A stretch of 64,000 nt of DNA from a virus: IMG/VR virus record IMGVR_UViG_3300032294_003343, positions 64,001 to 128,000 of that record; one strand, written 5' to 3'. A program made the translations under genes and the position numbers. The notes beneath the pieces are model-generated. The model worked only from the letters and a program-made list of their open reading frames with translations, had not been told where the DNA came from and searched no databases. Shown piece after piece: positions 47,449 through 63,112 of the stretch (positions are counted from its first letter, which is position 1; each line of letters begins with the position of its first letter).

Positions 47449-48035
47449 TGAAAGAATTTATAGAATTTTACGAAAAAGTTAAATCAAACAAAACACATAT
47501 TATTACAATCGATTCTGTAAAGTTTATTGTTCGTGAAATTACTTGGAAAGAAGGCTTACTGATTGATGCAAAATCGTTCAGAAAGAAAGACAATATTGTT
47601 TATCAAAATTCAGAATTTGAAAAAAGAGAAATTTTGAAGATTGCTATTCTGAGAGTATTTGACACCAATACTAATACTGATTACATACCTGATTTTGAAA
47701 CATCATTATTAGAAAAACTTGATTACACAATCATAGAAAAACTTTGGGTCGAATATCAAAATTATCTTTATCTTAACGCCGATGAAGCTAATTTTTACTA
47801 CATTGCAACAAAAAAATATTATAATCCAAATGATACAGAAACATACCCCGTGCCACCCTTAATCGTTGAAATTGATTATATGACACGAGGTTTAGTTTCT
47901 ATGAGTAAAGATGAATTTGCCAATCTTAGTATGAAAGAATTTGAAACAATTCAGTTAATTTTAGCTACTAAGAATGAAGCAAAGCCAGAAAGTGCAGCAG
48001 ATCTTGATATTGATTTAGAAAAAGAAATGCGCTAA
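47445..48035 (+). CDS. Tail assembly chaperone-like protein, 196 aa
   Basis: FIVREITWKEGLLID...LLEKLDYTIIEKLW, with a C-terminal SKDEFANLSMKEF. ATGA-coupled. Confidence 0.45.
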   Translation: MMKEFIEFYEKVKSNKTHIITIDSVKFIVREITWKEGLLIDAKSFRKKDNIVYQNSEFEKREILKIAILRVFDTNTNTDYIPDFETSLLEKLDYTIIEKLWVEYQNYLYLNADEANFYYIATKKYYNPNDTETYPVPPLIVEIDYMTRGLVSMSKDEFANLSMKEFETIQLILATKNEAKPESAADLDIDLEKEMR

Positions 48036-48841
48036 AGAGTAAATGAAAGTGTGTTTTTGTATTTATTTCTAACCATTTCAGCAATTGCAGTTCTGTCCCA
48101 TTGATGGAATAAAAAATACTTCTCTCCACTTTCATTACAAACATCTGTTCCATCAAAAAATACATCAACATTATCTCTTTTTATTGCTTCACCTGTAGCA
48201 CAAAAAGTATCAGTATATGGATGGCATAGCATAATATTAGGATTTTGTTTAAATTGTCTGTATAGATATCCCAACATAGCCTGATCTGGAATTACATAGC
48301 TATATCTTCTATTTATTGCTGTGAGAATAAGTGTGCAATAATTTAGAAATGCACTAGTTTTTCCGCCATATGTTCCACCATTGATTACATAAGAATCATC
48401 ATATCTTTCTTTGTTAAAAACTAATGTATTCAAAGTCCATTCATGCCATGCAGCATTACAATCATTTTCTTTTATTTGCATGCCTTCACAAACTAAAAAT
48501 AACTCTTTTTCTGGATGGCTTGCCATAAACTCAAATGGATCTTTTTGAATAATTACATCTCGCATGTCCCATTGCATGCAGTAATCAAAATCTTTACCAT
48601 GTTCACAAATCCAATTGTAATATGCAACATATGTCAAGTTGAAAGGATTCATGTTTTCTTCAACTTCTACTATATAATCGTAGTATTTTCTAAGTTTCTC
48701 TATGTTGCTTTGTGAAACATCATGTACACAAATTAGTTTCTTGAAGTTTTTTTGTTTTGCTAAAGATTGAAGATAAATATCAGCATCAATAGAGTCTAAT
48801 ATTCGATCACCTTGCAAAAAATTAAGCATTAAGTTATTCAT
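48032..48841 (-). CDS. GT-A-type glycosyltransferase-like protein, 269 aa
   Basis: DMRDVIIQKDPF (DxxD), INGGTYGG, DQAML and HQWDR motifs. Confidence 0.65.
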   Translation of the reverse strand: MNNLMLNFLQGDRILDSIDADIYLQSLAKQKNFKKLICVHDVSQSNIEKLRKYYDYIVEVEENMNPFNLTYVAYYNWICEHGKDFDYCMQWDMRDVIIQKDPFEFMASHPEKELFLVCEGMQIKENDCNAAWHEWTLNTLVFNKERYDDSYVINGGTYGGKTSAFLNYCTLILTAINRRYSYVIPDQAMLGYLYRQFKQNPNIMLCHPYTDTFCATGEAIKRDNVDVFFDGTDVCNESGEKYFLFHQWDRTAIAEMVRNKYKNTLSFTL

Positions 48842-48878: not shown

Positions 48879-49712
48879 CTATTTATTAAAATTACCAGAT
48901 ATCAATAATTCTTCATAAGTTTTCTTAATTCCAGAATGCAATCCAATCAAATTGATATCAAAAAGATGCAGATTATATTCACCATAATAACTTAATCCTA
49001 AATTTTCTTTTTCAATAATTGTTTCAACATTATAATCAGATAAGTTATTGATAATTGTTGCAATATCAGATAGTTTGTATTTTTGCTGATATGAACAATT
49101 TATAGTTTGTTGTTTTACACTAGCATCGATTGTGAACTTTACAACTTGACATAAATCATCCATATAGAAAAAGTCCATAAATTTATCTTGATGAATTTGT
49201 ATAGGTTTTCTATTTATGTAATTTATTATGTTAGCTTTGATCATTCTAGAAGTAAGTTCATCACTATTGAAAACATTAAATAGTCTTATATTATAAAAAC
49301 CTTTCAATAAAAGTCCAGATTTAGCAATTAAGTTCTTGCTCATTCCATATGGATCGATTGGATGTGCGCACTTCAAATCAGTTGAAAAGTCTATGTTATA
49401 TCTTCGGTCTAATTCTGCACCTGATCCAAATGAAATATATTTATCAAAAGACAAAGAATTATCTAAAATATTTTGATGCATAATACAGTTTTCGTAAAAA
49501 ACAGTATTTTCATCATCTTTAAGTCTACTTCCACCAGTTGTTGCAGTATGAATGACAACATCAAAATACTTGTCTTTAAAAAAATGTTTTACTTCTTCTG
49601 AATTTAATAAATTAAGATTTGATCTATTAGTCAGAGTCAAATTATAATCTTTAAGATTTTTTGCTAAATTTCTAGCTACAAATCCATTTGAACCTGTGAT
49701 CAGGATATTCAT
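48879..49712 (-). CDS. NAD-dependent epimerase/dehydratase (extended SDR)
   Basis: ILITGSNGFVA, FGSGAE, YGMSK (YxxxK), DFFYMDD. Confidence 0.9.
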   Translation of the reverse strand: MNILITGSNGFVARNLAKNLKDYNLTLTNRSNLNLLNSEEVKHFFKDKYFDVVIHTATTGGSRLKDDENTVFYENCIMHQNILDNSLSFDKYISFGSGAELDRRYNIDFSTDLKCAHPIDPYGMSKNLIAKSGLLLKGFYNIRLFNVFNSDELTSRMIKANIINYINRKPIQIHQDKFMDFFYMDDLCQVVKFTIDASVKQQTINCSYQQKYKLSDIATIINNLSDYNVETIIEKENLGLSYYGEYNLHLFDINLIGLHSGIKKTYEELLISGNFNK

Positions 49713-51430
49713 TTAATGTCTTCTAAACTTCCAGGAATAATTTTGCCATTTTCATCAATACCTTTTGCAGATACTTTTGGCTCATGAAGTTCCCAAGGAT
49801 CTGTCATCACTTCAATAATTTCAGGACCTGAATGTGAAAAAGTACTTTGTATTAAGTCAAGTTGATTATTGTTCAATATTTGACTGTACTTAATCCCAAA
49901 AGCATCAGATATTTTTTTGAAATTTGGAAGAGTAACTCCTGATGAAGGTTCAGAACCAACTAAATTTCCTTTGAAAAATGAATTTTGTGTAAGTTTGATT
50001 GATAAGTACCCATCATTATTCAGAATAAATATTTTGATTGGTAAATTATGATGAACGACAGTTTGCAATTCTTGCAAGTTCATCATAATACTCCCGTCGC
50101 CTTCTATGCAAATGATAGTTTTATTACATCCATAATAGGCTCCTATTGCTGCAGGAAGACCATAGCCCATTGGAGCAGTACCTTCATTAGAAAAAAGCTG
50201 TTGATTTGATCGCAGCCTTACAGTCTTGTGAAGAACAACATGAGCTGTTCCATCACTAGTAACTATAATGCTATCATCATCAAGAAATTCTTCTAACTTT
50301 TCAGAAAACACATAGGTACTTACATAGTTTTCTAACTTTCTATGTTTATCTAATACAAGTTGTTCTTCAGATCTTTTGAGCTTAATATAGTCCAGCCATT
50401 CTCTTATATCAAAGTTTGCTTCATATGTTTCAAAAAACTCAAAAAAATTCTTTAAATCTAAATTGATTCCAATGAAAGAATCATTTTGATCAAATTTTTT
50501 TATTTCAAAATTATCTACATCTATTACTATTTTTTTAGCATTTGGAGCAAACTTGTTAAGATCGTATCCAATTACTTTAGGATTTAATCTAGACCCTAAA
50601 GATATAATAAAATCAGCTTGTTGAATTATCTGGTTTGATGTTTTTTGCCCTAAGATTCCAATTTTACCAGTGTAAAATTCATAATCATAATTGATAATGT
50701 CTACTGCTGAATGAGGTCCTGATACAACTGGCAACTGATACTTTTGAATAAAATTCTTAAGCTCATTGATGGTGCCAGAAGATTTAATTCCATTGCCTAT
50801 AACAACAACTGGCTTTGATTTTTGAAAATTATCAAAACAACTTTTCAATAATTCTATTTGTTTTGAATTGTCACTTTCATCAAATATTTGAGCAGATTTA
50901 AGAGATTCAACATCAATTTCCGAGGCTTGAATATCAAGAGGTACATCCAACCATACGGGTCCTGGTCTCTTATTAACGCATTCATTCCATGCAGTTTCCA
51001 AATGATATTTAATTTCATTTTTATCATAAACTGTTTCTGCATACTTAGTCATAGTTTTTACTGTATTGACAATATCAAATTCTTGTTGTCCAATTTGTCT
51101 ACATCCAGTATTGATTGACATTTGCTCAGTAGGAACTTGACCAGATATAACTATCATTGGGATAGAATCTTGGTAAGCACACAAAACTCCAGTAATTGCA
51201 TTTGTTCCTCCTGGACCAGTAGTAACCAAAACACAACCAGGTTTACCAGAAGTTCTGAAATATGCTTCTGCTGCCATTGCACAGGCTTGTTCATGGTGAT
51301 TGCAAACGTATCTTAAGCCTGATTTACCAAGTGAATCAATTAAATGCATACAGCCTCCACCGGATACGGTGAAGACTGTGTCTATGCCTTTTTCTTTTAT
51401 AAATTCAAAAATATAGTCTGATAATTTCAT
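49709..51430 (-). CDS. ThDP-dependent acetolactate synthase-like enzyme (YerE-like sugar C-branching candidate), 573 aa
   Basis: GGGCMHL, HHEQACAMAAE, TTGPGGTN, RPGPVWLDVPLD, MGYGLPAAIG, GDGS...NN ThDP motif; sugar-cluster context. Confidence 0.85.
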   Translation of the reverse strand: MKLSDYIFEFIKEKGIDTVFTVSGGGCMHLIDSLGKSGLRYVCNHHEQACAMAAEAYFRTSGKPGCVLVTTGPGGTNAITGVLCAYQDSIPMIVISGQVPTEQMSINTGCRQIGQQEFDIVNTVKTMTKYAETVYDKNEIKYHLETAWNECVNKRPGPVWLDVPLDIQASEIDVESLKSAQIFDESDNSKQIELLKSCFDNFQKSKPVVVIGNGIKSSGTINELKNFIQKYQLPVVSGPHSAVDIINYDYEFYTGKIGILGQKTSNQIIQQADFIISLGSRLNPKVIGYDLNKFAPNAKKIVIDVDNFEIKKFDQNDSFIGINLDLKNFFEFFETYEANFDIREWLDYIKLKRSEEQLVLDKHRKLENYVSTYVFSEKLEEFLDDDSIIVTSDGTAHVVLHKTVRLRSNQQLFSNEGTAPMGYGLPAAIGAYYGCNKTIICIEGDGSIMMNLQELQTVVHHNLPIKIFILNNDGYLSIKLTQNSFFKGNLVGSEPSSGVTLPNFKKISDAFGIKYSQILNNNQLDLIQSTFSHSGPEIIEVMTDPWELHEPKVSAKGIDENGKIIPGSLEDIK

Positions 51431-52500
51431 TGCAAATCATCTTTTGTTAATGGACTACCTTTTTTCAAATCTTTGTTTAGGATAAATTCATTATCCATAA
51501 ATTCTCTAGAAGTGATTTGATTTATGTCTGGTAAATAAGGTACAGCCGCATAAACATCCTTTAATGTTACAGTATACCCTTTTTTCAAATCCTTATTTAT
51601 ATAAAAGCCTCGGTAAAGAGCAGCTAAATATTCACTCTCTTTTTCATCAATAATTCTTCTTTGTGATGAGGATGTTCCACACATTTGGTTTGACTTATGA
51701 AATGCTTTGAACCATTCGTCAACTTGATGAGGTAAAGAACAATATTTACTTACTTCTTTCTGCTCATGGTTTTTTGGATAAGGTATATCAATGTGTCTCT
51801 CCCAAGTCCTTACTCCTTTTGCATAAGAAATGAACATTGAAGATTCCCAATCGTGATACTCATGAGTGGAAAAACCAATTGTATGATTTGGATATTTAGA
51901 TTTCAAATAGTCTATTTGATTTAACTCAAGTTCAGAGTCTTCGCTTGGATATTTAGAAACACAATGATTTATAGCTAATGGGATTTTTCTATTGTCAAAA
52001 AATCTAACGACATCATCAATTTGTTTTTCATTAGCCCCACCAGTAGAGATAATTACAGGTTTCTTAGTACTGGCAATTTTTTGAAGCAGAATCCAATCAT
52101 TGATATCTGCACTAGAAACTTTGATAATTGGTAAATCAAATTGCACACACCAATCAACAGACTTTTCGTCAAAAGGTGTAGCCATGGGTATGCAATTAGT
52201 TTTCTTGATGTATTCGACAAGTTCAGACATTTCGTCAAAACTTAGCTTTGTTTTTAAAGTTTTTTGAATGTATCTTTCTTTTTTGGGAAGAGTAAGTAAA
52301 TCTTGATTCTTCCCATTATCAACAAACTCACTATGAATGAAATTTTCAACATCTCTGAATTGCAACTTAATTGCAGCTTTGATTTTGTTATTTCGTACAA
52401 CAGAAGCAAATTCTTTAACTATTTGTTTGCCTCTTGACAAAGAGCCCCAATGGTTATTTGCAAGCTCTAAAACAAATAAATTATGGAAAATTTCGTTCAT
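51427..52500 (-). CDS. neuB: N-acetylneuraminate/nonulosonate synthase family protein with C-terminal SAF-like domain
   Basis: ELANNHWG, IKLQ, TPFDEKSVD, KPVIISTGG, HCVSKYP, GFSTHE, ERH. Confidence 0.88.
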   Translation of the reverse strand: MNEIFHNLFVLELANNHWGSLSRGKQIVKEFASVVRNNKIKAAIKLQFRDVENFIHSEFVDNGKNQDLLTLPKKERYIQKTLKTKLSFDEMSELVEYIKKTNCIPMATPFDEKSVDWCVQFDLPIIKVSSADINDWILLQKIASTKKPVIISTGGANEKQIDDVVRFFDNRKIPLAINHCVSKYPSEDSELELNQIDYLKSKYPNHTIGFSTHEYHDWESSMFISYAKGVRTWERHIDIPYPKNHEQKEVSKYCSLPHQVDEWFKAFHKSNQMCGTSSSQRRIIDEKESEYLAALYRGFYINKDLKKGYTVTLKDVYAAVPYLPDINQITSREFMDNEFILNKDLKKGSPLTKDDLQ

Positions 52501-52507
52501 AAAAATA

Positions 52508-53404
52508 TTATAGTGTAAATTGAACTAAAGGTAAAGTAATTCCAGTTTGATCAATAACTTCAGACTTGTATCCATATGATTCCAAAATCTTTGTAAATGT
52601 ATCAATGTTAAGTACTCCATTTACATTATGAGCTTCCACAATAATTTTGGGTTTATAATGATCAAAAAACTCTTTATTTTCAAAGATAAAAGATTCTGCA
52701 CCCTCAATATCACACTTAATAAAATCAACTCTATCAAGGTTATATTTTTGTACGATATCAAAAAGAGTGTAACATTTTACTTCAACAATCTCGCCTCTTT
52801 CTCCAACAAGATCAACTGCTGAAGATCCCATATTTTGTTCAAGCGAAAATTTCAGTGTTCCAGTATGTGTCCAAACTGCAGCATTTAATAATTCAATATT
52901 CTCTGATTGAAACAACGCAATATTTTTTTGCAAGCATTCGAAGTTTGTAAAATCAGGTTCCATAGCAATAACTTTTCCTGACTTTCCAACATTATTTGAA
53001 AAAGCTATTGACGTTAAGCCAGAATATGCACCAAGGTCAAACACTACATGTCCTTCTGACAAATTAGCAAAATCCAAATATTGCTCAATTGTTACAAATG
53101 GTTCAGCAAGTGATGGGCAAAAAGGCTCAAATAAATCAAATCCCTTGACCTTATGTTGTGCAGGTTTTGAAAAATCTACTACTTTTTTCCCATCTACAAT
53201 TTTGTAAGAAACTGAACTAAAATAATAGTCAAACCCATACATTATAGTTTTTATGTAAACATTTTGTCTTTTATTGATAATAACGATTTGATCATCATTA
53301 ATAATGTGGATATTGTCATCTACTTCTACCACTTGCATGTTCAGTTCTAACATTGCTTCATAAACTGTTTTCTTTTTTGGTAAAACATCAGTTTCAGTTA
53401 CCAT
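52508..53404 (-). CDS. FkbM-family methyltransferase, 298 aa
   Basis: VFDLGAYSG, AMEPD, NAAVW, FIKCDIEGAE. Confidence 0.88.
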   Translation of the reverse strand: MVTETDVLPKKKTVYEAMLELNMQVVEVDDNIHIINDDQIVIINKRQNVYIKTIMYGFDYYFSSVSYKIVDGKKVVDFSKPAQHKVKGFDLFEPFCPSLAEPFVTIEQYLDFANLSEGHVVFDLGAYSGLTSIAFSNNVGKSGKVIAMEPDFTNFECLQKNIALFQSENIELLNAAVWTHTGTLKFSLEQNMGSSAVDLVGERGEIVEVKCYTLFDIVQKYNLDRVDFIKCDIEGAESFIFENKEFFDHYKPKIIVEAHNVNGVLNIDTFTKILESYGYKSEVIDQTGITLPLVQFTL

Positions 53405-54351
53405 ATAAAATTCTCCTTATAGTATTTGATAATTTCAATAATTTCATTATCAAAAATACACTTTGGTGTCCATCCAAGATTTCGCAATTTACTGTCATTG
53501 AGTGCATATCTGACATCTTGACCTGGTCTAACAATATTAAAATCGATGTACTCTCTCGGATCTTCAATATGTTTGTCAAAGTAGATATCTAATATTTTTT
53601 CAACTGTTCTTATATTTGATTGTTCAAATCCACCAGCAACATTAAATATCTCATTTTTACAATTGTTCTCAATTATAGTCAAAACAGCGCTGGCGGTATC
53701 TTTAGCATGCAACCAATTTCTTACAGGTTTGCCTTCTGCATGTAAAGGTATTCTTCTGCCAAGTTTAAGGAATTTACACGCTTTTGGGATAAGTTTTTCT
53801 ACATATTGACCTATGCCATAATTATTTGTTGGTCTGATTATAATATAGGGTATGTTGTAAGTTCTTGACCATGCTGTAATCAATTGATCTGCAGCAGCCT
53901 TGGTTGCTGAATAAGGGTTAGATGGCTTAAGAACGTCAGTTTCAATATGTTCACCATCTGATATATCACCATAAACTTCATCAGTGCTAAAATGAATAAA
54001 TGTAGGAACAATATATCCCTCTTTTTGATAAGCCCTCAAAAGTTCAAGAATGTTATAAACACCATCAATGTTTGAATGTAAAAAATCATCACTTTTACGT
54101 ATTGAATTATCTACATGTGTTTCGGCTGCAGTATTGATAAAATAATCGCAGTCAACCAATCTATCTAAATCACATATATCTTTTTCTTCAAACTTAAACT
54201 TTGGATTAGATTTAAATTCTTCCAATTTAGAAATTCTTGATGCATATGTACATTTATCAATTCCGAAAACATACCAGCCTTTATCAAGACAAGCTTGAGT
54301 TACATATGACCCAATAAATCCTAAGCATCCTGTCACGTATACTACTTTCAT
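53398..54351 (-). CDS. rmlB: dTDP-glucose 4,6-dehydratase-like (start revised from 54375)
   Basis: VTGCLGFIGS, DKCTYA, AAETHVDNSI, STDEVYG, PYSATKAA, NNYG..Q..EKLIP, RPGQDVRY. The ATG at 54351 forms an ATGA overlap with the upstream stop. Confidence 0.9.
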   Translation of the reverse strand: MKVVYVTGCLGFIGSYVTQACLDKGWYVFGIDKCTYASRISKLEEFKSNPKFKFEEKDICDLDRLVDCDYFINTAAETHVDNSIRKSDDFLHSNIDGVYNILELLRAYQKEGYIVPTFIHFSTDEVYGDISDGEHIETDVLKPSNPYSATKAAADQLITAWSRTYNIPYIIIRPTNNYGIGQYVEKLIPKACKFLKLGRRIPLHAEGKPVRNWLHAKDTASAVLTIIENNCKNEIFNVAGGFEQSNIRTVEKILDIYFDKHIEDPREYIDFNIVRPGQDVRYALNDSKLRNLGWTPKCIFDNEIIEIIKYYKENFIW

Positions 54352-55223
54352 GATGTTTTCTTTTTCTTTTTGCAAGCTAGCATATATAAGTTTGTGAAAT
54401 GAACATAATCTAAAGCTGCCTGATAATTCAAAACTTGCTCCTTGATAATTTCAAGTCCACAAGATTCAATTAAGCAATGCAAAGATTTATTAGAATAAAA
54501 ATTTATATGTTCATGCCAATGTTTTTTAGTTTTATATAGATCTAATGACTCATTATTTTTTGCCATAAGATCTTCACAAGGAACCTCTAGATATAAAACC
54601 GTATTTTCGCTCATGGATTCAATTATATCCATAAGTAATTGCTTTGGATAAGAGACATGTTCAAGAACATTGCTACAAACTACCAAATCATAAGCATGAT
54701 TTTTAATCATAGATGGTTCTATTTTTTCACAATTTGGAAACAATGTTTTGTCTGTCCATTCATAGATGTAAACTTTGCTAGCTGTTTCTAAAAATGGAGT
54801 GTTTTTACCATCATCTCCTCCCCAATCCAATACGAGTGGTTTAATGCTGATAAAGTCAAGAAAACTTTCAATTTCTTTTTTATATCCAATAGCTACATCC
54901 AAATTTTTCTGTTTATCTTTATAACCTGGTTCATAAGAATCTCTGACATCTATATATTTTGATTCTCTGTAATTCTCATATAAGTTTTTTAATTCATGAT
55001 CTTCAAATCTGAAATCACTGAATAAAAAACCACAATCTTGGCATTGCACAGACTTGCAAGGCATATAAATAGTGCCATTTGGTACTCCATACAAATTCCA
55101 TGTGTCATCTATTTCAAATAAATCATAATCGAATATCATTTTTGACATAAATGGCATCAAAATAGCAGAAGATTTTTCTAGTTTTTTACTTTCACAACAA
55201 GGGCAGGATAAAGCTAAATTCAT
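54348..55223 (-). CDS. Class I SAM methyltransferase with N-terminal Zn motif, 291 aa
   Basis: CPCC...CQDCG, VLDWGGDDG, YDLVVCSNVLEHV, YLEVP, HEHINFY. Confidence 0.85.
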   Translation of the reverse strand: MNLALSCPCCESKKLEKSSAILMPFMSKMIFDYDLFEIDDTWNLYGVPNGTIYMPCKSVQCQDCGFLFSDFRFEDHELKNLYENYRESKYIDVRDSYEPGYKDKQKNLDVAIGYKKEIESFLDFISIKPLVLDWGGDDGKNTPFLETASKVYIYEWTDKTLFPNCEKIEPSMIKNHAYDLVVCSNVLEHVSYPKQLLMDIIESMSENTVLYLEVPCEDLMAKNNESLDLYKTKKHWHEHINFYSNKSLHCLIESCGLEIIKEQVLNYQAALDYVHFTNLYMLACKKKKKTS

Positions 55224-55326
55224 TTTGCATTCTCAAAAAAATATTATACATTCATAATTAACAAACGTAAAAACTTGACCAACATAATCTCTATAGTTAT
55301 TGAAAATTGATTTTTTTATAAGTAGG

Positions 55327-55332
55327 TATAAT
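55327..55332 (+). promoter_or_regulatory. -10 box in the divergent intergenic region of the glycan cluster
   Basis: TATAAT 18 nt before the ATG at 55351. A TATAAT is also present on the minus strand at 55243-55248. No well-spaced -35 seen. Confidence 0.4.
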
Positions 55333-55350
55333 TAAATTAGGATTATTTAT

Positions 55351-55752
55351 ATGAATAGAAAATATTTACCAACTCTTTCAGAACTCGTTGATCGTCTTTC
55401 AATTGTGCAGCTTAAAGAAGTTTTTATAACTGAACATAAGGCTGAATATGCAGAGGAAATTGCTGCAATTGTTCATGATATCCAGGCACATCTTGATGAA
55501 AATGATGCTGTTGTAGATGCAGAGGTAATTCGTGCAATAGTTGTTCTTTCGCAAATGAATTTACATATTTGGCATAATGAAACTAATTATCGTAAGGGTA
55601 TCAAGGATGGAAACAATCTTGAACTAACTCATGGATTGAATGGAATTAGAAATACTGCTAAAAACAAAATTCAAGAAGTTTGTGGTGGTAGAAAAGATTA
55701 TAAGATCGATTGTCTTGCTGCTGATTTCAAAGATTGGGAGATTAGCTGGTAA
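55351..55752 (+). CDS. Helical hypothetical protein (DUF6165-like), 133 aa
   Basis: LSELVDRLSIVQLK...N..IWH.E...R...NGIR...KNKI pattern, as in small proteins of glycan clusters. Confidence 0.55.
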   Translation: MNRKYLPTLSELVDRLSIVQLKEVFITEHKAEYAEEIAAIVHDIQAHLDENDAVVDAEVIRAIVVLSQMNLHIWHNETNYRKGIKDGNNLELTHGLNGIRNTAKNKIQEVCGGRKDYKIDCLAADFKDWEISW

Positions 55753-56690
55753 TGGAAAAAGTCTTAATTACTGGTGGAGCTGGATATTTAGGTTCTACCC
55801 TTACTGAAGTGTTGTTGTCTAAAGGCTATGCAGTTACTGTATTAGACAATTTAACTTATAAGCAACTTTCTCTCACGTCTTTCTGTCATAATAAAAACTT
55901 CAATCTTATTGTTGGAGATGTACGGGATACCAAACTTCTTACAAGTCTGGTGGAAACTCATGACATCATCATTCCATTAGCTGCAATTGTAGGTATGCCA
56001 GCTTGTAAAAAAGATCCAGATCTAACAGTAGCTGTAAATTATCAACAAATTAAAAACATTGTTGAGGTAATTCAGCCAAGTCAGAAATTGTTAGTTCCTA
56101 ATACAAACTCTCAATATGGAAGTTCTGAAACAATCATTACAGAAGAAAGTCCATTCAATCCTCTTTCTCTTTATGCGCAAACAAAATGCGATGCTGAAAA
56201 GCGTGTTTTAGAATGGGGTAATGGTATTTCTTTAAGGCTTGCAACAGTATTTGGAGTTTCTTACAGACAAAGAATGGATTTGCTTGTAAATGATTTTGTT
56301 TATCGAGCTTTCACTGATGAGTTTTTAGTTTTATTCGAATCTCATTTCTTACGAAACTATGTGCATGTAAGAGATGTTGCTAAAGCTTTTGTTCATTTGA
56401 TTGAAAATTATGAAACCTGCAATAACAATGCATTCAATGTAGGTCTTACTTCTGCAAACATGTCAAAACTTCAACTTGCTCAAAAGGTCAAAGAATATGT
56501 GCCAAGCTTAGTCATTATTGAAGAACAATTTAAAGAAGATTTTGATAAGAGAAACTATGTTGTTTCTAATGAGAAACTTGAAAAAACAGGTTGGTCATGT
56601 GATTTTTCATTGGACGCTGGAATTCAAGAATTGCTTATGGCATATCAAATGATAGCGAATTTCAAGAATAAAGATTTTACAAATTTATAG
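55752..56690 (+). CDS. NAD-dependent epimerase/dehydratase (SDR), 312 aa
   Basis: ITGGAGYLG, LAAIVG.PAC, YAQTK, RLATVFG...RMDLLVN, HVRDVA, DKRNY. Confidence 0.9.
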   Translation: MEKVLITGGAGYLGSTLTEVLLSKGYAVTVLDNLTYKQLSLTSFCHNKNFNLIVGDVRDTKLLTSLVETHDIIIPLAAIVGMPACKKDPDLTVAVNYQQIKNIVEVIQPSQKLLVPNTNSQYGSSETIITEESPFNPLSLYAQTKCDAEKRVLEWGNGISLRLATVFGVSYRQRMDLLVNDFVYRAFTDEFLVLFESHFLRNYVHVRDVAKAFVHLIENYETCNNNAFNVGLTSANMSKLQLAQKVKEYVPSLVIIEEQFKEDFDKRNYVVSNEKLEKTGWSCDFSLDAGIQELLMAYQMIANFKNKDFTNL

Positions 56691-56697
56691 GAATATT

Positions 56698-57717
56698 ATG
56701 AAAGTACTCTTCGTTTACAAACCTTTTTATCAACATGATACAAAATCAGAAAACCATCAAGAAAAGCTTAGAGGTTCATTTCATGCAGCTTTTGGTGAAG
56801 ATAACCCAGATTATCAAATGGAAGTTTTACATTTCGGTAATGCTCCTGGATTAATTAGAACCCCCAAAGAAATGAATGAAGAAATGCTCAAGAGAGATTT
56901 CGATATTTGTATTGTATGCGAAGAACTTCATTTTGCGGTTGAGCTAGATACTATCAAAAAACTTGGTAAGAAGTTATTTCTTACTAATTGGGACTTGTTT
57001 ATTGGAACAGCTCCGAGCATACATGTCAACTTCAGATTAATGATTAAGAAGCCTAGAATCTGGGGTGAGCACAAATTTCCAGTTCCAATGATTGAAGCAA
57101 CTCAATATTGTAAGTTTTTAGTTGGTGACTATGGTTACGATGAAATTCTTCCAAATATGTATGCTATTGATCAGCCTATAGATTCACGAGTTTTTAATAC
57201 TGAAGGATGCACTGAAGAAAGTAGAACTACAGATGTTGGCTTCAATGGAATGATTTATATTCAAGAAAGAGCTAGATATTATGAACTCTTTCGAAAAGCT
57301 AATCTGCCTATCACATATACCGGAAGCGTCAACAAAGATATTTTCCCAGCTCAAGTTTTGTCAACTAAAGACTATGCTGAGATTTATAAGAAAACCAAAA
57401 TCTCTTTGTGTTTTACAGAAGCAATTTTTAGTCCAAACAATCATACAAGAAAAGGCAGAATTTCAGAAGTAGCATCTTGTGGAAGTTTTTTACTTACTAC
57501 TCATCCTGACTGTATGAAGTATCGTGATAAGTCTTGGTACAAAATTGGGGAGCATTTTGACTCTATGGATGAATCTGACTGTGTAGATAAAGTTAGATAT
57601 TATTTGAATAATCCTGAAAAAAGAATTCAAATGGCTGATGCAATGCATAAACATTGGCAAGAAAATTATTCTCCAGTCAAATGGTGGGGAAATGTCTTTA
57701 GATGGGCAAAATTATAA
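56698..57717 (+). CDS. Glycosyltransferase, CgeB/Glyco_trans_1_2-like, 339 aa
   Basis: DVGFNG...ER...YAEIYKKTKISLCF...KGRISEVASCGSFLLT...KVRYYLNNPEKRIQMA. Confidence 0.8.
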   Translation: MKVLFVYKPFYQHDTKSENHQEKLRGSFHAAFGEDNPDYQMEVLHFGNAPGLIRTPKEMNEEMLKRDFDICIVCEELHFAVELDTIKKLGKKLFLTNWDLFIGTAPSIHVNFRLMIKKPRIWGEHKFPVPMIEATQYCKFLVGDYGYDEILPNMYAIDQPIDSRVFNTEGCTEESRTTDVGFNGMIYIQERARYYELFRKANLPITYTGSVNKDIFPAQVLSTKDYAEIYKKTKISLCFTEAIFSPNNHTRKGRISEVASCGSFLLTTHPDCMKYRDKSWYKIGEHFDSMDESDCVDKVRYYLNNPEKRIQMADAMHKHWQENYSPVKWWGNVFRWAKL

Positions 57718-57751
57718 ACTGTTAGTATAATGAGAATAAGGTAAAAAATAT

Positions 57752-59260
57752 ATGCGAAAACTAGATATTTTGTTTGTACACCCCAATGCTTCTGAAATTA
57801 TTTACCAGGATTTGAGCAAAAAAAGTGCTGCAATTGAACCACCAATTTGGGCAGGCATGTTGGCAAATCACGTAAGGACTAGAAATTTTTCAGCTGCTAT
57901 CTTAGATTGTGAAGCTGAGAGATTGAATTGGGAAGATGCTAGTAAAACTATTGTTGATTATAATGCAAAAGTAATTTGTTTTGTAGTTTATGGCCAACAA
58001 CCTTCTGCTTCTTCACAAAACATGACTGGAGCAGTTGGTATTGCTAGATTAGTAAAGCAACTTACAGATACTCCTATTGTCTTTGTTGGTGGCCATGTTG
58101 CTGCATTACCAGATGAAGTTCTTGCTGAAGATTGTGTTGATATCGTACTTCTTAACGAAGGTGTGTATGCAATCTCAAACTTGCTTTCTACAGATTTGTC
58201 TGTCGAGCAGCTTAAAAACTGCACTGGAATTGGATTCAAATTAGATGGACAAATTTACAAAAATGAACCAGAAAGAATTGTTCCTAAATCCTTATTAGAG
58301 CAAGATTTACCTGGAATGGCTTGGGATTTACTTCCATCATTCAATAAATACAGAACTGCAGGATGGCATTCATGGAGTAATAATACGGAAAATGCTCCTT
58401 TTGCTGCTCTTTACACAAGTTTAGGTTGTCCTTACAAGTGCTCGTTTTGTATGATCAACATCATCAATAGAACAAGTAATCTCCCATTGATTACTTCTGA
58501 AGATTCTAATATGTTCAGATGGTGGACCCCAGAATTTATTATCAAGCAGTTTGATTATTTTGCTGAAAACAATGTTAGAAATATCAAGATTGCTGATGAA
58601 TTATTTGTATTGAATCCAAATCATTTTCAAAAAATATGTAACTTAATTATTGAGCGTGGATATGATTTTAACATCTGGGCATATTCTCGTGTAGATACTT
58701 GTAAACCACAATTTTTAGATACATTAAAGAAAGCTGGTGTTAATTGGCTTGGACTTGGAATTGAAAACCCAAATCAAACTTTGAGACAAGAGATTCACAA
58801 AGATCACTTTGTTGATGTAAAAATTACTGATTTGATGCAAAATATGAGAGATGCTGGAATAAGCATTGGTGGAAATTATATTTTTGGATTGCCAATGGAT
58901 ACTCATGAATCTATGCAAAATACTTTAGATTTTGCTATGGCTAATAAAACCGAAATGGCAAATTTTTACTGTGCTATGGCATATCCAGGAAGCCCACTTT
59001 ATAAAACAGCAGTTGCAAAGGGTTGGAAGCTTCCAGAAACATATTCAGGATATAGCCAACATTCATATGACATGTTGAATTTGTCAAATGATTTTCTTTC
59101 TGCCAAAGACATCGTAGCATTCCGAGATAAAGCTTTTGTAACTTATCATTCTGATGAAAACTACTTAAACTTGTTAGAAAATAAATTTGGCGTTCATGCA
59201 AAACACAATGTTGAAGATGTGTTGAAGATTAAACTTAAGAGAAAGTTATTAGGTGATTAA
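57752..59260 (+). CDS. Cobalamin-binding radical SAM protein, 502 aa
   Basis: EPPIWAGMLA, FVGGHVAALP (B12-binding), SLGCPYKCSFC (CxxxCxxC), LGIE, YIFGLP.DT, AYPGSPLY. Confidence 0.92.
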   Translation: MRKLDILFVHPNASEIIYQDLSKKSAAIEPPIWAGMLANHVRTRNFSAAILDCEAERLNWEDASKTIVDYNAKVICFVVYGQQPSASSQNMTGAVGIARLVKQLTDTPIVFVGGHVAALPDEVLAEDCVDIVLLNEGVYAISNLLSTDLSVEQLKNCTGIGFKLDGQIYKNEPERIVPKSLLEQDLPGMAWDLLPSFNKYRTAGWHSWSNNTENAPFAALYTSLGCPYKCSFCMINIINRTSNLPLITSEDSNMFRWWTPEFIIKQFDYFAENNVRNIKIADELFVLNPNHFQKICNLIIERGYDFNIWAYSRVDTCKPQFLDTLKKAGVNWLGLGIENPNQTLRQEIHKDHFVDVKITDLMQNMRDAGISIGGNYIFGLPMDTHESMQNTLDFAMANKTEMANFYCAMAYPGSPLYKTAVAKGWKLPETYSGYSQHSYDMLNLSNDFLSAKDIVAFRDKAFVTYHSDENYLNLLENKFGVHAKHNVEDVLKIKLKRKLLGD

Positions 59261-59803
59261 ATGAAAAAGGCACTCATTATTACTTGGGAAAAGTATCAAG
59301 ACCACGAACTAATTTATCCATATTATTCATTAAAAGAACATGGGTATGAAGTGACTTTGATGGCTAATCAAGTTGGAAAAATTTGGGGCAGCTTGGGAAC
59401 TCATATGCCTTGTGATGTTGAGACTAAAGTTTTTGAAGATGAAAATATTCGTCAAGAATTTTTAAAAGATTACGAAATTCTAGTAGTTCCTGGTGGTGTC
59501 AAAGCACTTGAAAAATTGCGACAAGAAAAGGGTGTTTTGGAATTTATTCGTCAGTGGAATTCACAAAATAAAACAATTTTCTGTATTTGCAATGGTGCTC
59601 AGTTATTAATTTCAGCAAAAATCTTAAATGGTAGAGTGATGTCTGGTTATTACTCTATTGATGTTGACATCGAAAATGCTGGTGCTACTTATGATAGAAG
59701 CCCAGTAGTAGTTGATGAAAATATCATTTCTTGCCCACATTATGACTTTATGGGCTTGTGGCTTAAGACTGCTTTTGAAGTACATGAAAACAGGAACATA
59801 TAG
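59261..59803 (+). CDS. DJ-1/PfpI family protein, 180 aa
   Basis: YQDHELIYPYY, VPGG...LR, ICNGAQLL (nucleophile elbow), VVVDENIIS. Confidence 0.88.
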   Translation: MKKALIITWEKYQDHELIYPYYSLKEHGYEVTLMANQVGKIWGSLGTHMPCDVETKVFEDENIRQEFLKDYEILVVPGGVKALEKLRQEKGVLEFIRQWNSQNKTIFCICNGAQLLISAKILNGRVMSGYYSIDVDIENAGATYDRSPVVVDENIISCPHYDFMGLWLKTAFEVHENRNI

Positions 59804-60458
59804 CAATAATATTGTCAAGAAACCTTGGGGTTATGAATATTTAGTATTTGAAAATTCCCAAGTGGCTTTATGGGCTTTATTTATTGCAAAAAATCACCAA
59901 ACATCAATGCACTGTCATCCCAATAAAACAACTGGGCTGATAGTGCTTGATGGAGCTTGTGAGATAAGTTTTTTTTCTAACTCTTTTGTTGTAGATGAGC
60001 TGGACAAAATTATGATTAGAAAAGGCTTATTTCATTCAACTAAATCAATAAGCGAAAATGGATCAGTAGTTTTTGAAATTGAAACACCAAATAACAAGCA
60101 AGATTTAGTTCGATTCGATGATTCTTATGGTAGAAAAGGTTTACCTTATGAGGGCAAAGAATTTGAACAACCCAAATCTGACAGTTGTTTGTGGATCAAT
60201 GAAGATTTTCAATTAAATTTTTCAAAATTTGCAAATTGTGAGTTAGAAATTCACACAGTTGATGATATTTCATTTTTTGACAATTACGATGATTCAGTCA
60301 ATTTTATATTTTTAAGTGGCGGTGTTATGACAAACTATGACGTAACACTTGTTAATCCTGGCGACATCATCAACAATATTATTGCAAAAAAAATTACTAG
60401 TATTTTTAAAAATATCATTCCAAATACAAAATTATTGATTATCAAAAAGGCAAAATAA
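59784..60458 (+). CDS. Cupin domain protein (mannose-6-phosphate isomerase-like; start revised from 59712)
   Basis: VKKPWGYEY, TSMHCHPNK, GLFHS, EIETP..KQDLVRFDDSYGR. The ATG at 59784 minimises overlap. Confidence 0.8.
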   Translation: MKTGTYSNNIVKKPWGYEYLVFENSQVALWALFIAKNHQTSMHCHPNKTTGLIVLDGACEISFFSNSFVVDELDKIMIRKGLFHSTKSISENGSVVFEIETPNNKQDLVRFDDSYGRKGLPYEGKEFEQPKSDSCLWINEDFQLNFSKFANCELEIHTVDDISFFDNYDDSVNFIFLSGGVMTNYDVTLVNPGDIINNIIAKKITSIFKNIIPNTKLLIIKKAK

Positions 60459-60484
60459 GCATATAATTATTTAGAGGTTTTAAT

Positions 60485-61405
60485 ATGTCTACTTATCCAG
60501 AAAGAAAACAAAGATTTGAAAATTTAAAAGAAGCATGGTCATTGAATCAATTGAATGATTTGATGTTACAATACAATCCTCCTCAAAATTTATTGTCTGA
60601 TTTCAAGTTTGCTGTAATGCTTTATATTTCAAAAGCATTTGATTTTGAATTTACAGCTGATGAAACTGAATTTATTAACAGGCTTGATAGCAAGAGATAT
60701 TTTAAGGATAATGTCACGCCAAATGGAGCTGTCGTTCCAAAAAAAGAATATCAATTAGAATTTAATATGGTCTTGAGGGCATGGTCTAAATTAGTTCAAA
60801 ATATGATATCAGGCCAACCAAGTTTACTTAATAAAATTAGAATGACACCTAATGTAAGAATTAAGTTTGGTGTTGAGCTTGAAGAAAATTATGGTAGGCC
60901 ATTAAATACTAGTATTCCACATTCTGATGCCTGGATTGATGGTCCTTGGGGAATAATTTGTTTCACACCATTGCTAGGCGATGTTGAAAACAACAATTTA
61001 TATCATTATAAGCCAAAAAATCCTGATCAATTTAACGATGATTGGTTAGCATTATCGCCAACTTTCGGAGATATGCAATGGGTTTTAGAGTATTACGAGC
61101 AATCTGATGAAATAACTCCAGTGAAAGGCAAAATTCATTTAGTTGATTATGCTCTTATTCACGAAACACATAGAAATGAAAATTGTGGAACAAGAATTTC
61201 TATCGACACTACTATTTATGTGGGAGATTATGATATTCACGAAGATCGACAATCTGAATATCTTGATGAAATGAAGATTTTTGGAGAAGATCTGTTTATT
61301 ACAACAAATAGATCAGTGCATGAAAATCAAATAGTAGATAAAAAAACTTCTTTTTCTCATTACACATCAGGTACGTTAAAAATCCATAATTGCAATGACA
61401 ACTGA
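60485..61405 (+). CDS. Putative Fe(II)/2-oxoglutarate dioxygenase-like protein, 306 aa
   Basis: PHSDAW (HxD)...LIHET (distal His)...RISID (R-x-S). TATAAT and GAGG upstream. Confidence 0.55.
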   Translation: MSTYPERKQRFENLKEAWSLNQLNDLMLQYNPPQNLLSDFKFAVMLYISKAFDFEFTADETEFINRLDSKRYFKDNVTPNGAVVPKKEYQLEFNMVLRAWSKLVQNMISGQPSLLNKIRMTPNVRIKFGVELEENYGRPLNTSIPHSDAWIDGPWGIICFTPLLGDVENNNLYHYKPKNPDQFNDDWLALSPTFGDMQWVLEYYEQSDEITPVKGKIHLVDYALIHETHRNENCGTRISIDTTIYVGDYDIHEDRQSEYLDEMKIFGEDLFITTNRSVHENQIVDKKTSFSHYTSGTLKIHNCNDN

Positions 61406-62228
61406 TTATCTTACAGATGTATTTACTAAAATTTCATTATGCAGACATTTTGAAAACGTAGTTTATGAAAAAATACAAGATAAATCTATAAGAGCACCAA
61501 CTTATTTATCAGCTGGTCAGGAAAGCATTCCATGTTCAATTGCCTCTTATCTTCAAGCTAAAAATATTGACCCGAATATTTTTATTCAGCATAGGGGGCA
61601 TTCAACTTATTTGGCTTTTGATGCTTCGCCTGAAAAGCTTGTTGATGAGTTGCTCGGCCTAGAATCAGGTTGCTCTTTTGGTATGGGTGGATCAGCATCA
61701 ATTCAATCATTTGAAAAAAATATTTTTGGACATGATGGTTTGATGGGTTCACAAGTGCCCATAGCTGTTGGTCATTGTTATGAAACTAGAAGTCCGACAA
61801 TTGTTTTTATGGGAGATGCTTCTGCCGAAGAAGACTATGTAGGATCTGCAATAGGTTGGGCATCTACTAAAAATTTACCCATACTTTTTATCGTTGAAGA
61901 TAATAATTTATCAATACTAACAGAGAAAAAAGTAAGAAGAAATTGGGCTATGCACGATTTGGCAATAGCCTACAAAATGAATGCTTATGATATCAGTGAT
62001 GATCCTACAATAATTGCTGAACATCTTAAGGACGTATTTAATGGGCCATTGTTATTAAATATAAGAACTGTCAGAAAGTATTGGCATGCTGGTGCTGGCA
62101 TAGATGGAGATTATTTTGATAGATATGAATGGCTCAAAAAAATTATGCCACTTGAAGTATTGAATATTGATGAAGAAAATAAAAATAGGGTAGAGGCATT
62201 ATGGCAATCACGCTTAGAGAAACTATAA
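61395..62228 (+). CDS. ThDP-dependent dehydrogenase E1 alpha-like subunit, 277 aa
   Basis: YLSAGQE, HRGH, GMGGS, MGDASAEE...VEDNN, HAG. Confidence 0.88.
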   Translation: MTTDYLTDVFTKISLCRHFENVVYEKIQDKSIRAPTYLSAGQESIPCSIASYLQAKNIDPNIFIQHRGHSTYLAFDASPEKLVDELLGLESGCSFGMGGSASIQSFEKNIFGHDGLMGSQVPIAVGHCYETRSPTIVFMGDASAEEDYVGSAIGWASTKNLPILFIVEDNNLSILTEKKVRRNWAMHDLAIAYKMNAYDISDDPTIIAEHLKDVFNGPLLLNIRTVRKYWHAGAGIDGDYFDRYEWLKKIMPLEVLNIDEENKNRVEALWQSRLEKL

Positions 62229-63112
62229 AATCTTTAGTCAAAAATCATTTGCTTGAAAAAAAGGGCAAAGTTTATGGGCAATGTTTATCAGCTGTTGGAT
62301 GGGTAGGCGGAACATTGCCAGAACTCTTTGAAGAAGATGGCATGGTTGATTTATCAATGGCTGATGTTGCTAATGGTGCAATAACTGTTGGTGCTGCACT
62401 TGCAAACACAAGACCAATTTATGTCGTCCGATATCAAGGATTTCAATGGTACAACTGTGTTTCAATATTAAATTACGCAGCTAAAAGTAAGGATATTTGG
62501 AAAAGATCTTGTCCTGTATTAGTGAGAAGTGTTGCTATGGAAGGTGCAATTGGACCAGTTGCAGGTTCATCTCATCACTCTTTATTTTATAGAATGCCAG
62601 GAATAAAAATTGTTTCTCCTATGACTCCAAATGAATACGAACATGCATACAATGAATTTATGAATGATGATGTTCCATATTATTTTTCAGAACATAGAAA
62701 AAGTTTTGATAATGACAAAGACTTAGAAAACATCATTTATGAAGACGCTGACGTTGTGCTGATTCCATTTTCAGTGACAAGATTTTCAGCTCAAAAAGCA
62801 TCTGAAATTTTATTCAATCAAGGTATTAAATGCAATGTCTTGCACCAATTGTGGATAAAGCCATTGAAGTTTGATGATAATTTTTATAAAAATGCTTCTA
62901 ACTGCAAATATGGTTGCATTGTGCTAGATGACGATTATACGTCAGGCATAATTGAATCTGTGGCATACAAATTAAGTAAAAAAATAAATAAGCCTATAGA
63001 ATGTATGGGTTTAGATGATAAAACTGCTGGTTTTGCTAAAGAACATGATAATTTGCCTCCAGATGAACATCAAATAGTAAAAAAAGTGATTGAAATGATT
63101 GGTAAAAGATAA
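62201..63112 (+). CDS. E1 beta / transketolase C-terminal-like subunit, 303 aa
   Basis: VGAALANTRPI, GPVAGSSH, MPGIKIVSPMTP, EHR, WIKPL. Confidence 0.85.
   Translation: MAITLRETIKSLVKNHLLEKKGKVYGQCLSAVGWVGGTLPELFEEDGMVDLSMADVANGAITVGAALANTRPIYVVRYQGFQWYNCVSILNYAAKSKDIWKRSCPVLVRSVAMEGAIGPVAGSSHHSLFYRMPGIKIVSPMTPNEYEHAYNEFMNDDVPYYFSEHRKSFDNDKDLENIIYEDADVVLIPFSVTRFSAQKASEILFNQGIKCNVLHQLWIKPLKFDDNFYKNASNCKYGCIVLDDDYTSGIIESVAYKLSKKINKPIECMGLDDKTAGFAKEHDNLPPDEHQIVKKVIEMIGKR

Follow-up and report, generated by a model that had tools for sequence, protein, structure and literature searches.

The thiamine diphosphate (ThDP)-dependent branching of sugars is known from a few bacterial O-antigens and from actinomycete antibiotics. 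JanthE (8rph), a characterised YerE-like enzyme, accepts ketones as partners for keto-acid donors (PMC12188165, PMC12247030). The donors of ErwE and its relatives are 4-hydroxy-2-keto acids from an aldolase encoded in the same cluster, and a YerF-type reductase and methyltransferases act afterwards (PMC9306805). For the paired enzymes AviB1/B2, Pau11/12 and KbDH, branching of other keto-sugars has been proposed or shown (PMC12247030, PMC4753412). Viral enzymes are not listed in a 2025 review of ThDP-dependent sugar branching, which regards viruses as unexplored, and our literature searches found no publication on viral (phage) YerE-like enzymes. Here we describe a viral sugar island with enzymes that resemble both types. 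The window analysed (64,000 nucleotides) comprises bases 64001-128000 of the 169,183-bp IMG/VR virus record IMGVR_UViG_3300032294_003343, for which a CheckV completeness of about 47% is given. The island extends from window position 48032 to about 70353 (about 22 kb) and reaches beyond the window end. Coordinates past this end carry the prefix L002 (L002 coordinate = window coordinate minus 63000).

We found three ThDP systems in the island: a YerE-like enzyme, a long E1alpha/beta-like pair and a short E1alpha/beta-like pair. Our main conclusion, to which we assign a probability of about 60%, is that the products of the island are nucleotide-activated deoxy sugars with carbon branches introduced by ThDP chemistry, and that the island does not serve amino-acid or pyruvate metabolism. 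The first-pass annotation of the window had correctly located the genes of an acetolactate synthase (ALS)-like enzyme, a short-chain dehydrogenase/reductase (SDR), NeuB, RmlB, a B12 radical SAM enzyme and an E1 pair. It had counted two ThDP systems, and the short pair, which lies past the window end, brings this number to three. It had also combined the activities into a single sugar. Several sugars are probably formed instead, because the cassettes occur separately in relatives. The phage context, too, emerged only in the present analysis. Our direct observations concern the assignment of families, the catalytic motifs, the coupling of genes, their conservation over many loci and the phage context. 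Neighbourhood and co-occurrence counts were made within loci of ±10 kb, and these included 80 viral YerE-like loci, 80 short-pair loci and 35 long-pair loci (115 E1-pair loci in total).

The YerE-like enzyme is encoded in a minus-strand operon, which reads in transcription order MT23, RmlB, FkbM, NeuB-like, YerE-like, SDR277 and h269. A plus-strand block lies next to this operon, and an RfbH-type gene follows the block on the minus strand. The genes of the YerE route are as follows.

48032-48841, minus strand: h269, last gene of the YerE operon, probable glycosyltransferase (AF2 model and Foldseek)
48879-49712, minus strand: SDR277, extended SDR (Pfam Epimerase, RmlD-like N-terminus)
49709-51430, minus strand: YerE/JanthE-like ThDP carboligase (ALS-like), 573 aa, with TPP_enzyme_N, M and C domains
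51427-52500, minus strand: NeuB-like phosphoenolpyruvate (PEP)-condensing synthase (Pfam NeuB domain)
52508-53404, minus strand: FkbM-family S-adenosylmethionine (SAM) methyltransferase, tailoring (PF05050 67 bits, TIGR01444 101 bits); position kept in the close relative L296
53398-54375, minus strand: RmlB-type nucleoside diphosphate (NDP)-hexose 4,6-dehydratase (TIGR01181 302 bits; STDEVYG and YxxxK)
54348-55223, minus strand: class I SAM methyltransferase (Methyltransf_23, MT23), tailoring (PF13489 53 bits)
L002:6043-7353, minus strand: RfbH-type DegT2, 3-dehydrase, 436 aa (NF011936 443 bits, cut-off 423)

Judged by its match to JanthE, by its position in the tree and by its RfbH/RmlB/SDR context, the ALS-like enzyme is a member of the YerE-like sugar-branching class and not an IlvB, and this part of the first-pass annotation was borne out. 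Among solved structures JanthE (8rph) was the best relative, with 364 bits over an end-to-end alignment, whereas acetolactate synthases (acetohydroxyacid synthases, AHAS) reached at most 223 bits and PpYerE 221 bits. The scores for all ALS equivalogs of NCBIfam remained far below the cut-offs (TIGR00118, 331 vs. 538). E47, D445-G446 and N472 were invariant in the phage protein and 15 homologues, and the activating Glu and the GDG...NN motif are kept. In a tree of 99 sequences, 95 YerE-like proteins were split from four true AHAS by a branch with 100% support, and each of these four AHAS genes adjoins a small subunit and ilv genes. The phage protein falls into an all-viral clade of 19 sequences, which also had 100% support. 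An ALS small subunit (PF10369, ALS_ss_C/ilvH) was not found in the whole 169-kb record. IlvB identity was rejected because of the missed ALS cut-offs, the 100% branch from AHAS and the lacking small subunit. IMG/VR contained 141 relatives of the YerE-like protein. Cellular relatives were only 38-44% identical, and no close relative was found among the cultured phages in GenBank.

When we compared the phage enzyme with JanthE (8rph, 8rpi, 8rpj) and YerE/PpYerE (5ahk), the three-domain ThDP architecture and the catalytic Glu were common to all of them. The phage enzyme carries the canonical GDG motif, whereas JanthE involves CDG at this site. The identity of PpYerE to the phage enzyme is not above that of AHAS. 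The neighbourhood of viral YerE-like genes is that of deoxysugar loci: DegT2 was present in 68, SDR277 in 56 and RmlB in 51 of the 80 loci. SDR277, which overlaps the YerE-like gene by 4 nt and accompanies it in 13/13 NeuB-anchored loci as well, keeps YxxxK and lacks the TDE dehydratase motif. On the basis of these sequence features, we propose SDR277 as YerF-like reductase for the branched product. The last gene of the operon, h269, had no Pfam match. Its AF2 model (mean pLDDT 57) is confident in the N-terminal half only. The top Foldseek matches of this model in the PDB were all retaining GT-A glycosyltransferases (BoGT6a, glycogenin, alpha-1,3-GalT) with E-values of about 1e-6 and TM scores of 0.36-0.44. 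D92 and D95 are invariant, and the gene takes the identical position in L296. From this weak model, h269 is a probable GT-A-fold glycosyltransferase and a plausible one for the YerE-route sugar. In some viral relatives (L015:11739-14321), genes for a short-chain dehydrogenase, a 3-dehydroquinate-synthase-like cyclase and a 315-aa protein lie between the YerE-like gene and SDR277. In these relatives, the side chain may accordingly be more elaborate than in the phage described here, and possibly cyclised.

RmlB and the RfbH-type DegT2 together are, according to their motifs, the enzymes that supply the classical YerE acceptor. In DegT2, the lysine that binds pyridoxal phosphate (PLP) is replaced by His (SFYPAHH), and a [2Fe-2S] Cys motif (C246xC248...C257xxC260) is present. 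The combination of His-for-Lys and Cys motif was found in 45/46 viral and 27/27 cellular homologues. RmlB is also common in short-pair loci (64/80). In L206 and L201 it is placed back to back with h133, which opens the plus-strand block, and it keeps this place even where relatives have no YerE module. RmlB is probably common to all three branching routes.

The NeuB-like gene and the YerE-like gene overlap by 4 nt (start/stop codons). In a NeuB-anchored search, the YerE-like gene began at the NeuB-like stop codon in 13/13 viral relatives. The pairing was found in all members of the viral clade (19/19) and in 26 of 80 cellular loci from several phyla. In an alignment with NeuB and PseI, the catalytic Glu and Lys of the NeuB-like protein and its two metal-binding His were all conserved. 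Its best PDB match was 3g8r, an uncharacterised structural-genomics protein (173 bits). Condensation of PEP with an aldehyde yields compounds of the 4-hydroxy-2-keto acid class. From its sequence and gene coupling, we consider it somewhat probable that the NeuB-like enzyme makes the keto-acid donor of the side chain and not a separate nonulosonic acid. If it acts as such a feeder, a methylated 3,6-dideoxyhexose with a long branch would be expected as product in place of yersiniose.

This arrangement resembles the unifying scheme that was established for erwiniose (ErwE/F/I/J), caryophyllose (MMAR_2332) and gastriose (MyGE; Steitz et al., 2022, PMC9306805). The common logic involves a 4,6-dehydratase and a 3-dehydrase leading to a 4-keto-3,6-dideoxyhexose, a dedicated enzyme for the 4-hydroxy-2-keto acid, YerE-like grafting, an NAD(P)H-dependent reductase and SAM methyltransferases. 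The donor-forming enzyme is different: a PEP-dependent NeuB-family synthase in the phage, a pyruvate aldolase in the described pathways. Similarly, the dehydratase of the phage is of the dTDP (RmlB) type, whereas the described pathways employ the CDP type. In addition, the genes described here are viral.

The two E1-like pairs and the DegT1 gene that accompanies them are encoded on the plus strand.

61395-62228, plus strand: long E1alpha-like ThDP subunit, 277 aa (PF00676 57 bits)
62201-63112, plus strand: long E1beta-like subunit, 303 aa (PF02779, Pyr, and PF02780, Transketolase_C)
L002:1181-1786, plus strand: short E1alpha-like subunit, 201 aa (domain search)
L002:1786-2322, plus strand: short E1beta-like subunit, 178 aa (domain search)
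L002:3292-4461, plus strand: ColD-type DegT1 (DegT fold, His at the PLP-lysine position)

As the first-pass annotation had described for the long pair, E1alpha and E1beta stand alone: neither an E2 core (PF00198) nor a lipoyl domain (PF00364) was detected in the whole 169-kb record. With the E1alpha model TIGR03182, the long subunit scored 99 bits and the short one 83 bits (cut-off 394). For NF006667, 61 and 49 bits were obtained for the E1-like pairs (cut-off 321). Identity with pyruvate dehydrogenase E1 (PdhA/PdhB) was rejected because these equivalog cut-offs were missed and because E2 and lipoyl domains were lacking. The ThDP-Mg motif GD...E-x-N is intact in both alpha subunits (G140-D141...E168-x-N170 in the long alpha). 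The long E1alpha had 2722 environmental homologues, and those listed were about 276 aa long. Judged by these environmental homologues, about 276 aa appears to be the native size. In the short pair, only the PP and the Pyr domain are left; Transketolase_C, the domain for E2 docking, is missing from its beta subunit. Because alpha and beta are fused in cyanophages, they should pair with each other.

Nearly all ThDP enzymes carry an activating Glu at the position that corresponds to Glu59 of the Geobacillus E1beta (1w85_B). In the long E1beta, an Asp is aligned to this cofactor-activating residue, and the Asp was present in 24/24 homologues that could be anchored. The short beta keeps the Glu. 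Natural replacement of the activating Glu by Asp is unusual among ThDP enzymes.

We found the short pair in 185 viral loci and the long pair in 35. The long-pair cassette comprises h133, RmlC, DJ-1, cupin, E1a, E1b, DegT1, ..., PfkB, and the short-pair cassette h133, SDR312, (B12-rSAM), E1a2, E1b2, DegT1, RmlC, PfkB and h110. DegT1 carries His in place of the PLP lysine (SFYFAHHMSTIEGG) and neither a CxC nor an Fe-S motif. This His was present in 47/48 and 29/30 homologues, with essentially no Fe-S motif. On these sequence grounds, DegT1 is classified as a ColD-type 3-dehydratase and not as an aminotransferase. It directly follows the pair in 68 of the 80 short-pair loci and in 31 of the 35 long-pair loci. 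Since a ColD-type DegT1 follows either pair, each ThDP system has its own 3-dehydratase. Together with the RmlB gene beside h133, this is the arrangement one would predict for three systems that each branch a 4-keto-3,6-dideoxy sugar.

By analogy, the E1 pairs are plausibly AviB1/B2-like sugar branchers. The known alpha-KADH2 enzymes are AviB1/AviB2 (avilamycin), Pau11/Pau12 (paulomycin) and KbDH-alpha/beta (kibdelomycin; PMC12247030, PMC4753412). We compared them with the phage pairs by gene context, and the likeness involves adjacent stand-alone E1alpha and E1beta, lack of E2/E3, a deoxysugar gene set and NDP-keto-sugar enzymes nearby. The known cases come from actinomycete antibiotic clusters, whereas the phage pairs are viral. 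A further difference is that one phage pair is cut to PP and Pyr (201 + 178 aa), and the other carries Asp for Glu.

The following scheme, with all its substrates, the order of its steps and the acceptor, is our proposal. Host NDP-glucose would be converted to an NDP-4-keto-6-deoxyhexose by the single RmlB-type 4,6-dehydratase. In the first route, the RfbH/E1-type 3-dehydrase and a host reductase would form the 4-keto-3,6-dideoxy sugar, and the NeuB-like enzyme would condense PEP with an aldehyde or aldose to a 4-hydroxy-2-keto acid. The YerE/JanthE-like enzyme would decarboxylate this acid and add the acyl carbanion to the C-4 ketone. SDR277 may then reduce the branched product in a YerF-like reaction, the two SAM methyltransferases may tailor it and the GT-A-like h269 may transfer it. 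In the second and third routes, the ColD-type DegT1 would provide the 4-keto-3,6-dideoxy acceptor, to which the long and the short E1 pair would add a pyruvate-derived C2 unit as proposed for AviB1/B2. RmlC, SDR312 and the B12 radical SAM enzyme would epimerise, reduce and C-methylate the products. Finally, three CgeB-like glycosyltransferases would attach the sugars to the acceptor, for which we favour virion proteins.

Different explanations have to be considered for each part of this scheme. Homologues of the ThDP enzymes are annotated in databases as 'acetolactate synthase' and 'pyruvate dehydrogenase E1', as would be expected for ordinary metabolic genes (IlvB, PdhAB) from a host, either in auxiliary amino-acid or pyruvate metabolism or as assembly contamination. 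We regard this as extremely improbable. Every equivalog cut-off was missed widely, and the sugar operons are conserved over hundreds of viral contigs. The island has the GC content of the phage, and close relatives have the same flanks. The first-pass annotation had named clustering with IlvB/PdhAB and a neighbouring ilvH or E2 as signs of such a role; we found the true AHAS on the other side of a 100% branch, and neither ilvH nor E2 or a lipoyl domain in the record. The same annotation had taken the NeuB-like protein for a nonulosonate synthase. Its NeuB-family domain, the complete set of catalytic residues and the alignment of its C-terminal domain to PseI and NeuB are what a genuine synthase of sialic-, pseudaminic- or legionaminic-like acids would show, and such an enzyme would form a separate nine-carbon sugar independently of the ThDP enzyme. 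We consider this improbable, since the protein scored about one third of the equivalog cut-offs (125 bits vs. 340 for PseI, 114 vs. 400 for NeuB), Pfam did not find a SAF domain, and the coupling of its gene to the YerE-like gene is both obligatory and translational. A CMP-sugar synthetase (CTP_transf_3) was not found in the 169-kb record, which covers about 47% of the genome, and PseB/C/G/H- or NeuC-type genes are absent from the island. As to the E1 pairs, the intact ThDP motif, the adjacent ColD-type gene and the lack of E2 agree with the AviB1/B2-like role suggested in the first-pass annotation, but the link to a heptose-type kinase leaves room for a role in which sugar phosphates, rather than NDP-keto-sugars, would be the substrates of the pairs or at least of the short one. 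Here, a transketolase- or DXS-like carboligation would form a heptose-type or 1-deoxy-ketose skeleton, which would be phosphorylated by PfkB, activated and then tailored. The best match of PfkB is RfaE domain I, short pair and PfkB occur together in 31 of the 80 giant-phage loci, and the reduction of the short pair to PP and Pyr domains points in the same direction. In the cultured cyanomyoviruses S-SM2 (39% identity; L282:8989-11737) and P-TIM68 (32%; L283:9058-10946), the pair is fused and followed by a PfkB homologue (42-44% identical). These regions lie inside the 'LPS clusters' (lipopolysaccharide; S-SM2 SSM2_198-200, P-TIM68 gp190-191; Sullivan et al., 2010, PMC3037559), which share with our phage the short-pair homologue and the subsequent PfkB-type kinase amid NDP-sugar epimerases and glycosyltransferases. 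They differ by the fusion, by heptose-pathway genes and by the lack of a ColD-type dehydratase, a YerE module and RfbH. In the giant-phage loci, however, a ColD-type NDP-sugar 3-dehydratase directly follows either pair and the other neighbours are NDP-sugar enzymes (RmlB, RmlC, SDR). Moreover, the alpha subunits scored 83-99 bits with E1 models compared with at most 26 bits with transketolase models, and a SIS isomerase and an HldE-II-type transferase were not found in the record, from which more than half of the genome is missing. Thus, we judge the sugar-phosphate role to be unlikely, although both possibilities are reconcilable if the acceptor is an NDP-heptose-type sugar.

The destination of the branched sugars was weighed in the same way. 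We lean weakly, with some reserve, towards virion proteins as acceptor, because the island lies inside the structural gene region, because the glycosyltransferases are soluble (three CgeB-like, one GT-A-like) and because there is a precedent in mycobacteriophages. In the part of that work (Freeman et al., 2023) that is described in PMC12619734, phage glycosyltransferases stand beside structural genes, as they do here, and the glycans sit on capsid and tail-tube proteins, whereas in our phage virion proteins are candidate acceptors. According to the same description, mycobacteriophages employ host sugar nucleotides and one or two glycosyltransferases, whereas our phage has a large sugar-synthesis island. 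Alternatively, the sugars may not be made for the virion and could serve remodelling of the host envelope (O-antigen or capsule change, superinfection exclusion) or hypermodification of phage DNA, which we consider possible but doubtful. For the cyanophage 'LPS clusters', which contain related genes, a role at the host surface has long been assumed (PMC3037559), and phage GT-B enzymes glycosylate DNA (10.1101/2023.12.21.572611). Against these destinations speaks the position of the island inside the structural region. In addition, the markers of a lipid-linked route (initiating phosphoglycosyltransferase, Wzx flippase) and of a DNA route (thymidylate-synthase-type hydroxymethylase, TET/JBP dioxygenase) are absent from the fragment, which lacks about half of the genome. 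Several observations weigh against our overall interpretation. The case for a virion acceptor consists of gene position and glycosyltransferase type. In the ESM Atlas, a single lead is to the T4 DNA beta-glucosyltransferase: the look-alikes of GTa, the first CgeB-like enzyme of the plus-strand block, are viral GT1_2 clusters, and one set carries this family. The Asp-for-Glu exchange may render the activity of the long pair different or low. In cyanophages, the neighbours of the fused pair and PfkB include genes for heptose-1-P adenylyltransferase and phosphoheptose isomerase, and a ColD-type gene is absent. The kinship of the ThDP enzymes was assessed against PDB structures and NCBIfam models and, for the YerE-like protein, in the tree with four true AHAS. 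Finally, the 169-kb record contains neither a nucleotidyltransferase (PF00483, PF01467) nor an E3-type reductase, so that the host, or the half of the genome that the record does not cover, has to provide sugar activation and the partner of RfbH.

The element that carries the island is an uncultured giant freshwater phage. The island lies between tail and head-packaging modules: a Mu gp36-like head-tail adaptor and very large open reading frames (ORFs) are found upstream, and a portal (phrog_16240, 116 bits), a large terminase TerL (phrog_2, 100 bits) and a sliding clamp downstream. The GC content is even through the region (0.28-0.34), and that of the island equals that of the rest of the phage. 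Close relatives are present as contigs of up to 358 kb (L206). When we compared L206, L296 and L165 with our phage, the flanks were 97-99% identical and the island content differed. L206 carries no YerE module, L296 no plus-strand block, and L201 two YerE-like genes. Thus, the glycan island is variable, and its content differs between closely related phages. In L296, where the flank gene h284 is 97% and RfbH 89% identical, the module is unbroken (h284, RfbH, RmlB, FkbM, NeuB, YerE, ..., SDR277, h269). Therefore, the plus-strand block was inserted between RfbH and the remainder of the module in our phage. All three ThDP systems together were found within ±10 kb in none of the other 115 E1-pair loci. 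The two YerE-like genes of L201, a 42-kb viral contig, are located at 1347-3149 and 15717-17540 (41% and 37% identical to the query). They are diverged and flank a short-pair cassette and an RfbH gene. A scan of the island for promoters and terminators yielded 95 hits, with 89 expected in shuffled sequence, and thus performed at chance level.

If all parts are put together, giant aquatic phages might possess a hypervariable 'serotype' locus that makes up to three carbon-branched deoxy sugars from host NDP-glucose for display on the virion. This would involve two enzyme solutions that are undescribed in the literature searched, namely a NeuB-fed YerE-like enzyme working with long keto acids, and minimal two-domain E1-like carboligases including an Asp-for-Glu lineage. 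We put this composite forward as a speculative and, as a whole, unlikely scenario. To the known features of such systems, our analysis adds the probable ColD-type identity of DegT1, the Asp-for-Glu lineage, the minimal short pair, the island architecture with swapping cassettes and the fused cyanophage form of the short pair beside PfkB. Viral contigs with these enzymes number in the hundreds (141 YerE-like, 185 short pair, 35 long pair). If our interpretation is correct, phages produce monosaccharides that rank among the most elaborate known and that differ from one close relative to the next, and this variation would suggest a glycan coat under diversifying selection. The enzymes would be compact new biocatalysts for tertiary alcohols. 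The cyanophage 'LPS clusters', which have been unexplained since 2010, would gain a concrete hypothesis that is testable in cultured S-SM2 and P-TIM68, and these two phages constitute a cultured experimental handle on the short-pair family. A homologue is also present in the 735-kb uncultured phage LR756501.

The plus-strand block consists of a first part (h133, SDR312, GTa, B12-rSAM, DJ-1, cupin, h306, E1alpha, E1beta, GTb) and a second part (short E1alpha, short E1beta, GTc, DegT1, RmlC, PfkB, Mpo1-like h110). Its other genes are listed below.

55351-55752, plus strand: h133, first gene of the plus-strand block, virus-specific and strongly conserved
55752-56690, plus strand: SDR312, GalE-like NDP-sugar epimerase or reductase (Pfam Epimerase 121 bits; no TDE motif)
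56698-57717, plus strand: GTa, CgeB-like (Glyco_trans_1_2) glycosyltransferase (PF13524 57 bits)
57752-59260, plus strand: B12-binding radical SAM enzyme (PF02310 and PF04055; best NCBIfam match HpnJ, 125 bits, no equivalog reached)
59261-59803, plus strand: DJ-1/PfpI-family protein (PF01965 115 bits), in 33/35 long-pair loci
59712-60458, plus strand: cupin protein (weak MannoseP_isomer and Cupin matches), in 33/35 long-pair loci
60485-61405, plus strand: h306 (HxD...H pattern; no Pfam match)
63122-64117 (past the window end), plus strand: GTb, second CgeB-like glycosyltransferase (domain search)
L002:2319-3290, plus strand: GTc, third CgeB-like glycosyltransferase (domain search)
L002:4454-4963, plus strand: RmlC (domain search)
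L002:4960-5730, plus strand: PfkB kinase, heptose-kinase-like (domain search)
L002:5685-6017 (window 68685-69017), plus strand: Mpo1-like/DUF962 h110, small membrane protein (100 bits), after PfkB here and in relatives

The most conserved protein of the island is h133, which was 81-95% identical in 74 of the 115 E1-pair loci. It always heads the E1-pair cassettes, back to back with RmlB. Its 36 invariant columns include several His, Asp, Arg, Asn and Lys, and its predicted fold is a confident five-helix bundle. No match was found in Pfam, NCBIfam, PDB profiles or Foldseek, and the VIA-wide Z-values of at most 7.2 are noise for a helical bundle. In the ESM Atlas, h133 retrieved viral clusters only, none of them of known function. 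SDR312 occurred in 60/80 short-pair loci with a median identity of 66%. In 31/80 of these loci, the B12 radical SAM gene is placed between SDR312 and E1a2. From its domains, this protein is a probable C-methyltransferase: like class B radical SAM methylases, it has a B12-binding domain at the N-terminus and a radical SAM core. A phosphonate pathway, to which weak PhpK-like matches of the radical SAM enzyme might have pointed, was dropped because there is no PEP mutase. For GTa, no relative in the PDB was found by sequence. The protein h306 is 88% identical in L165 and 24-32% identical in eight other long-pair loci. The cupin ORF, as called from its TTG, shares about 90 nt with the end of the DJ-1/PfpI gene, and the true start is probably located farther downstream.

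Most of the structural ORFs upstream of the island had no PHROGs or Pfam match. Three very large ORFs are located near the island, at 13029-23447 (minus strand, 3472 aa), 23449-27333 (minus strand, 1294 aa) and 36331-41034 (plus strand, 1567 aa). Two of them, the 1294-aa and the 1567-aa ORF, were scanned and had no Pfam match. The very large ORFs presumably encode virion or injected proteins.

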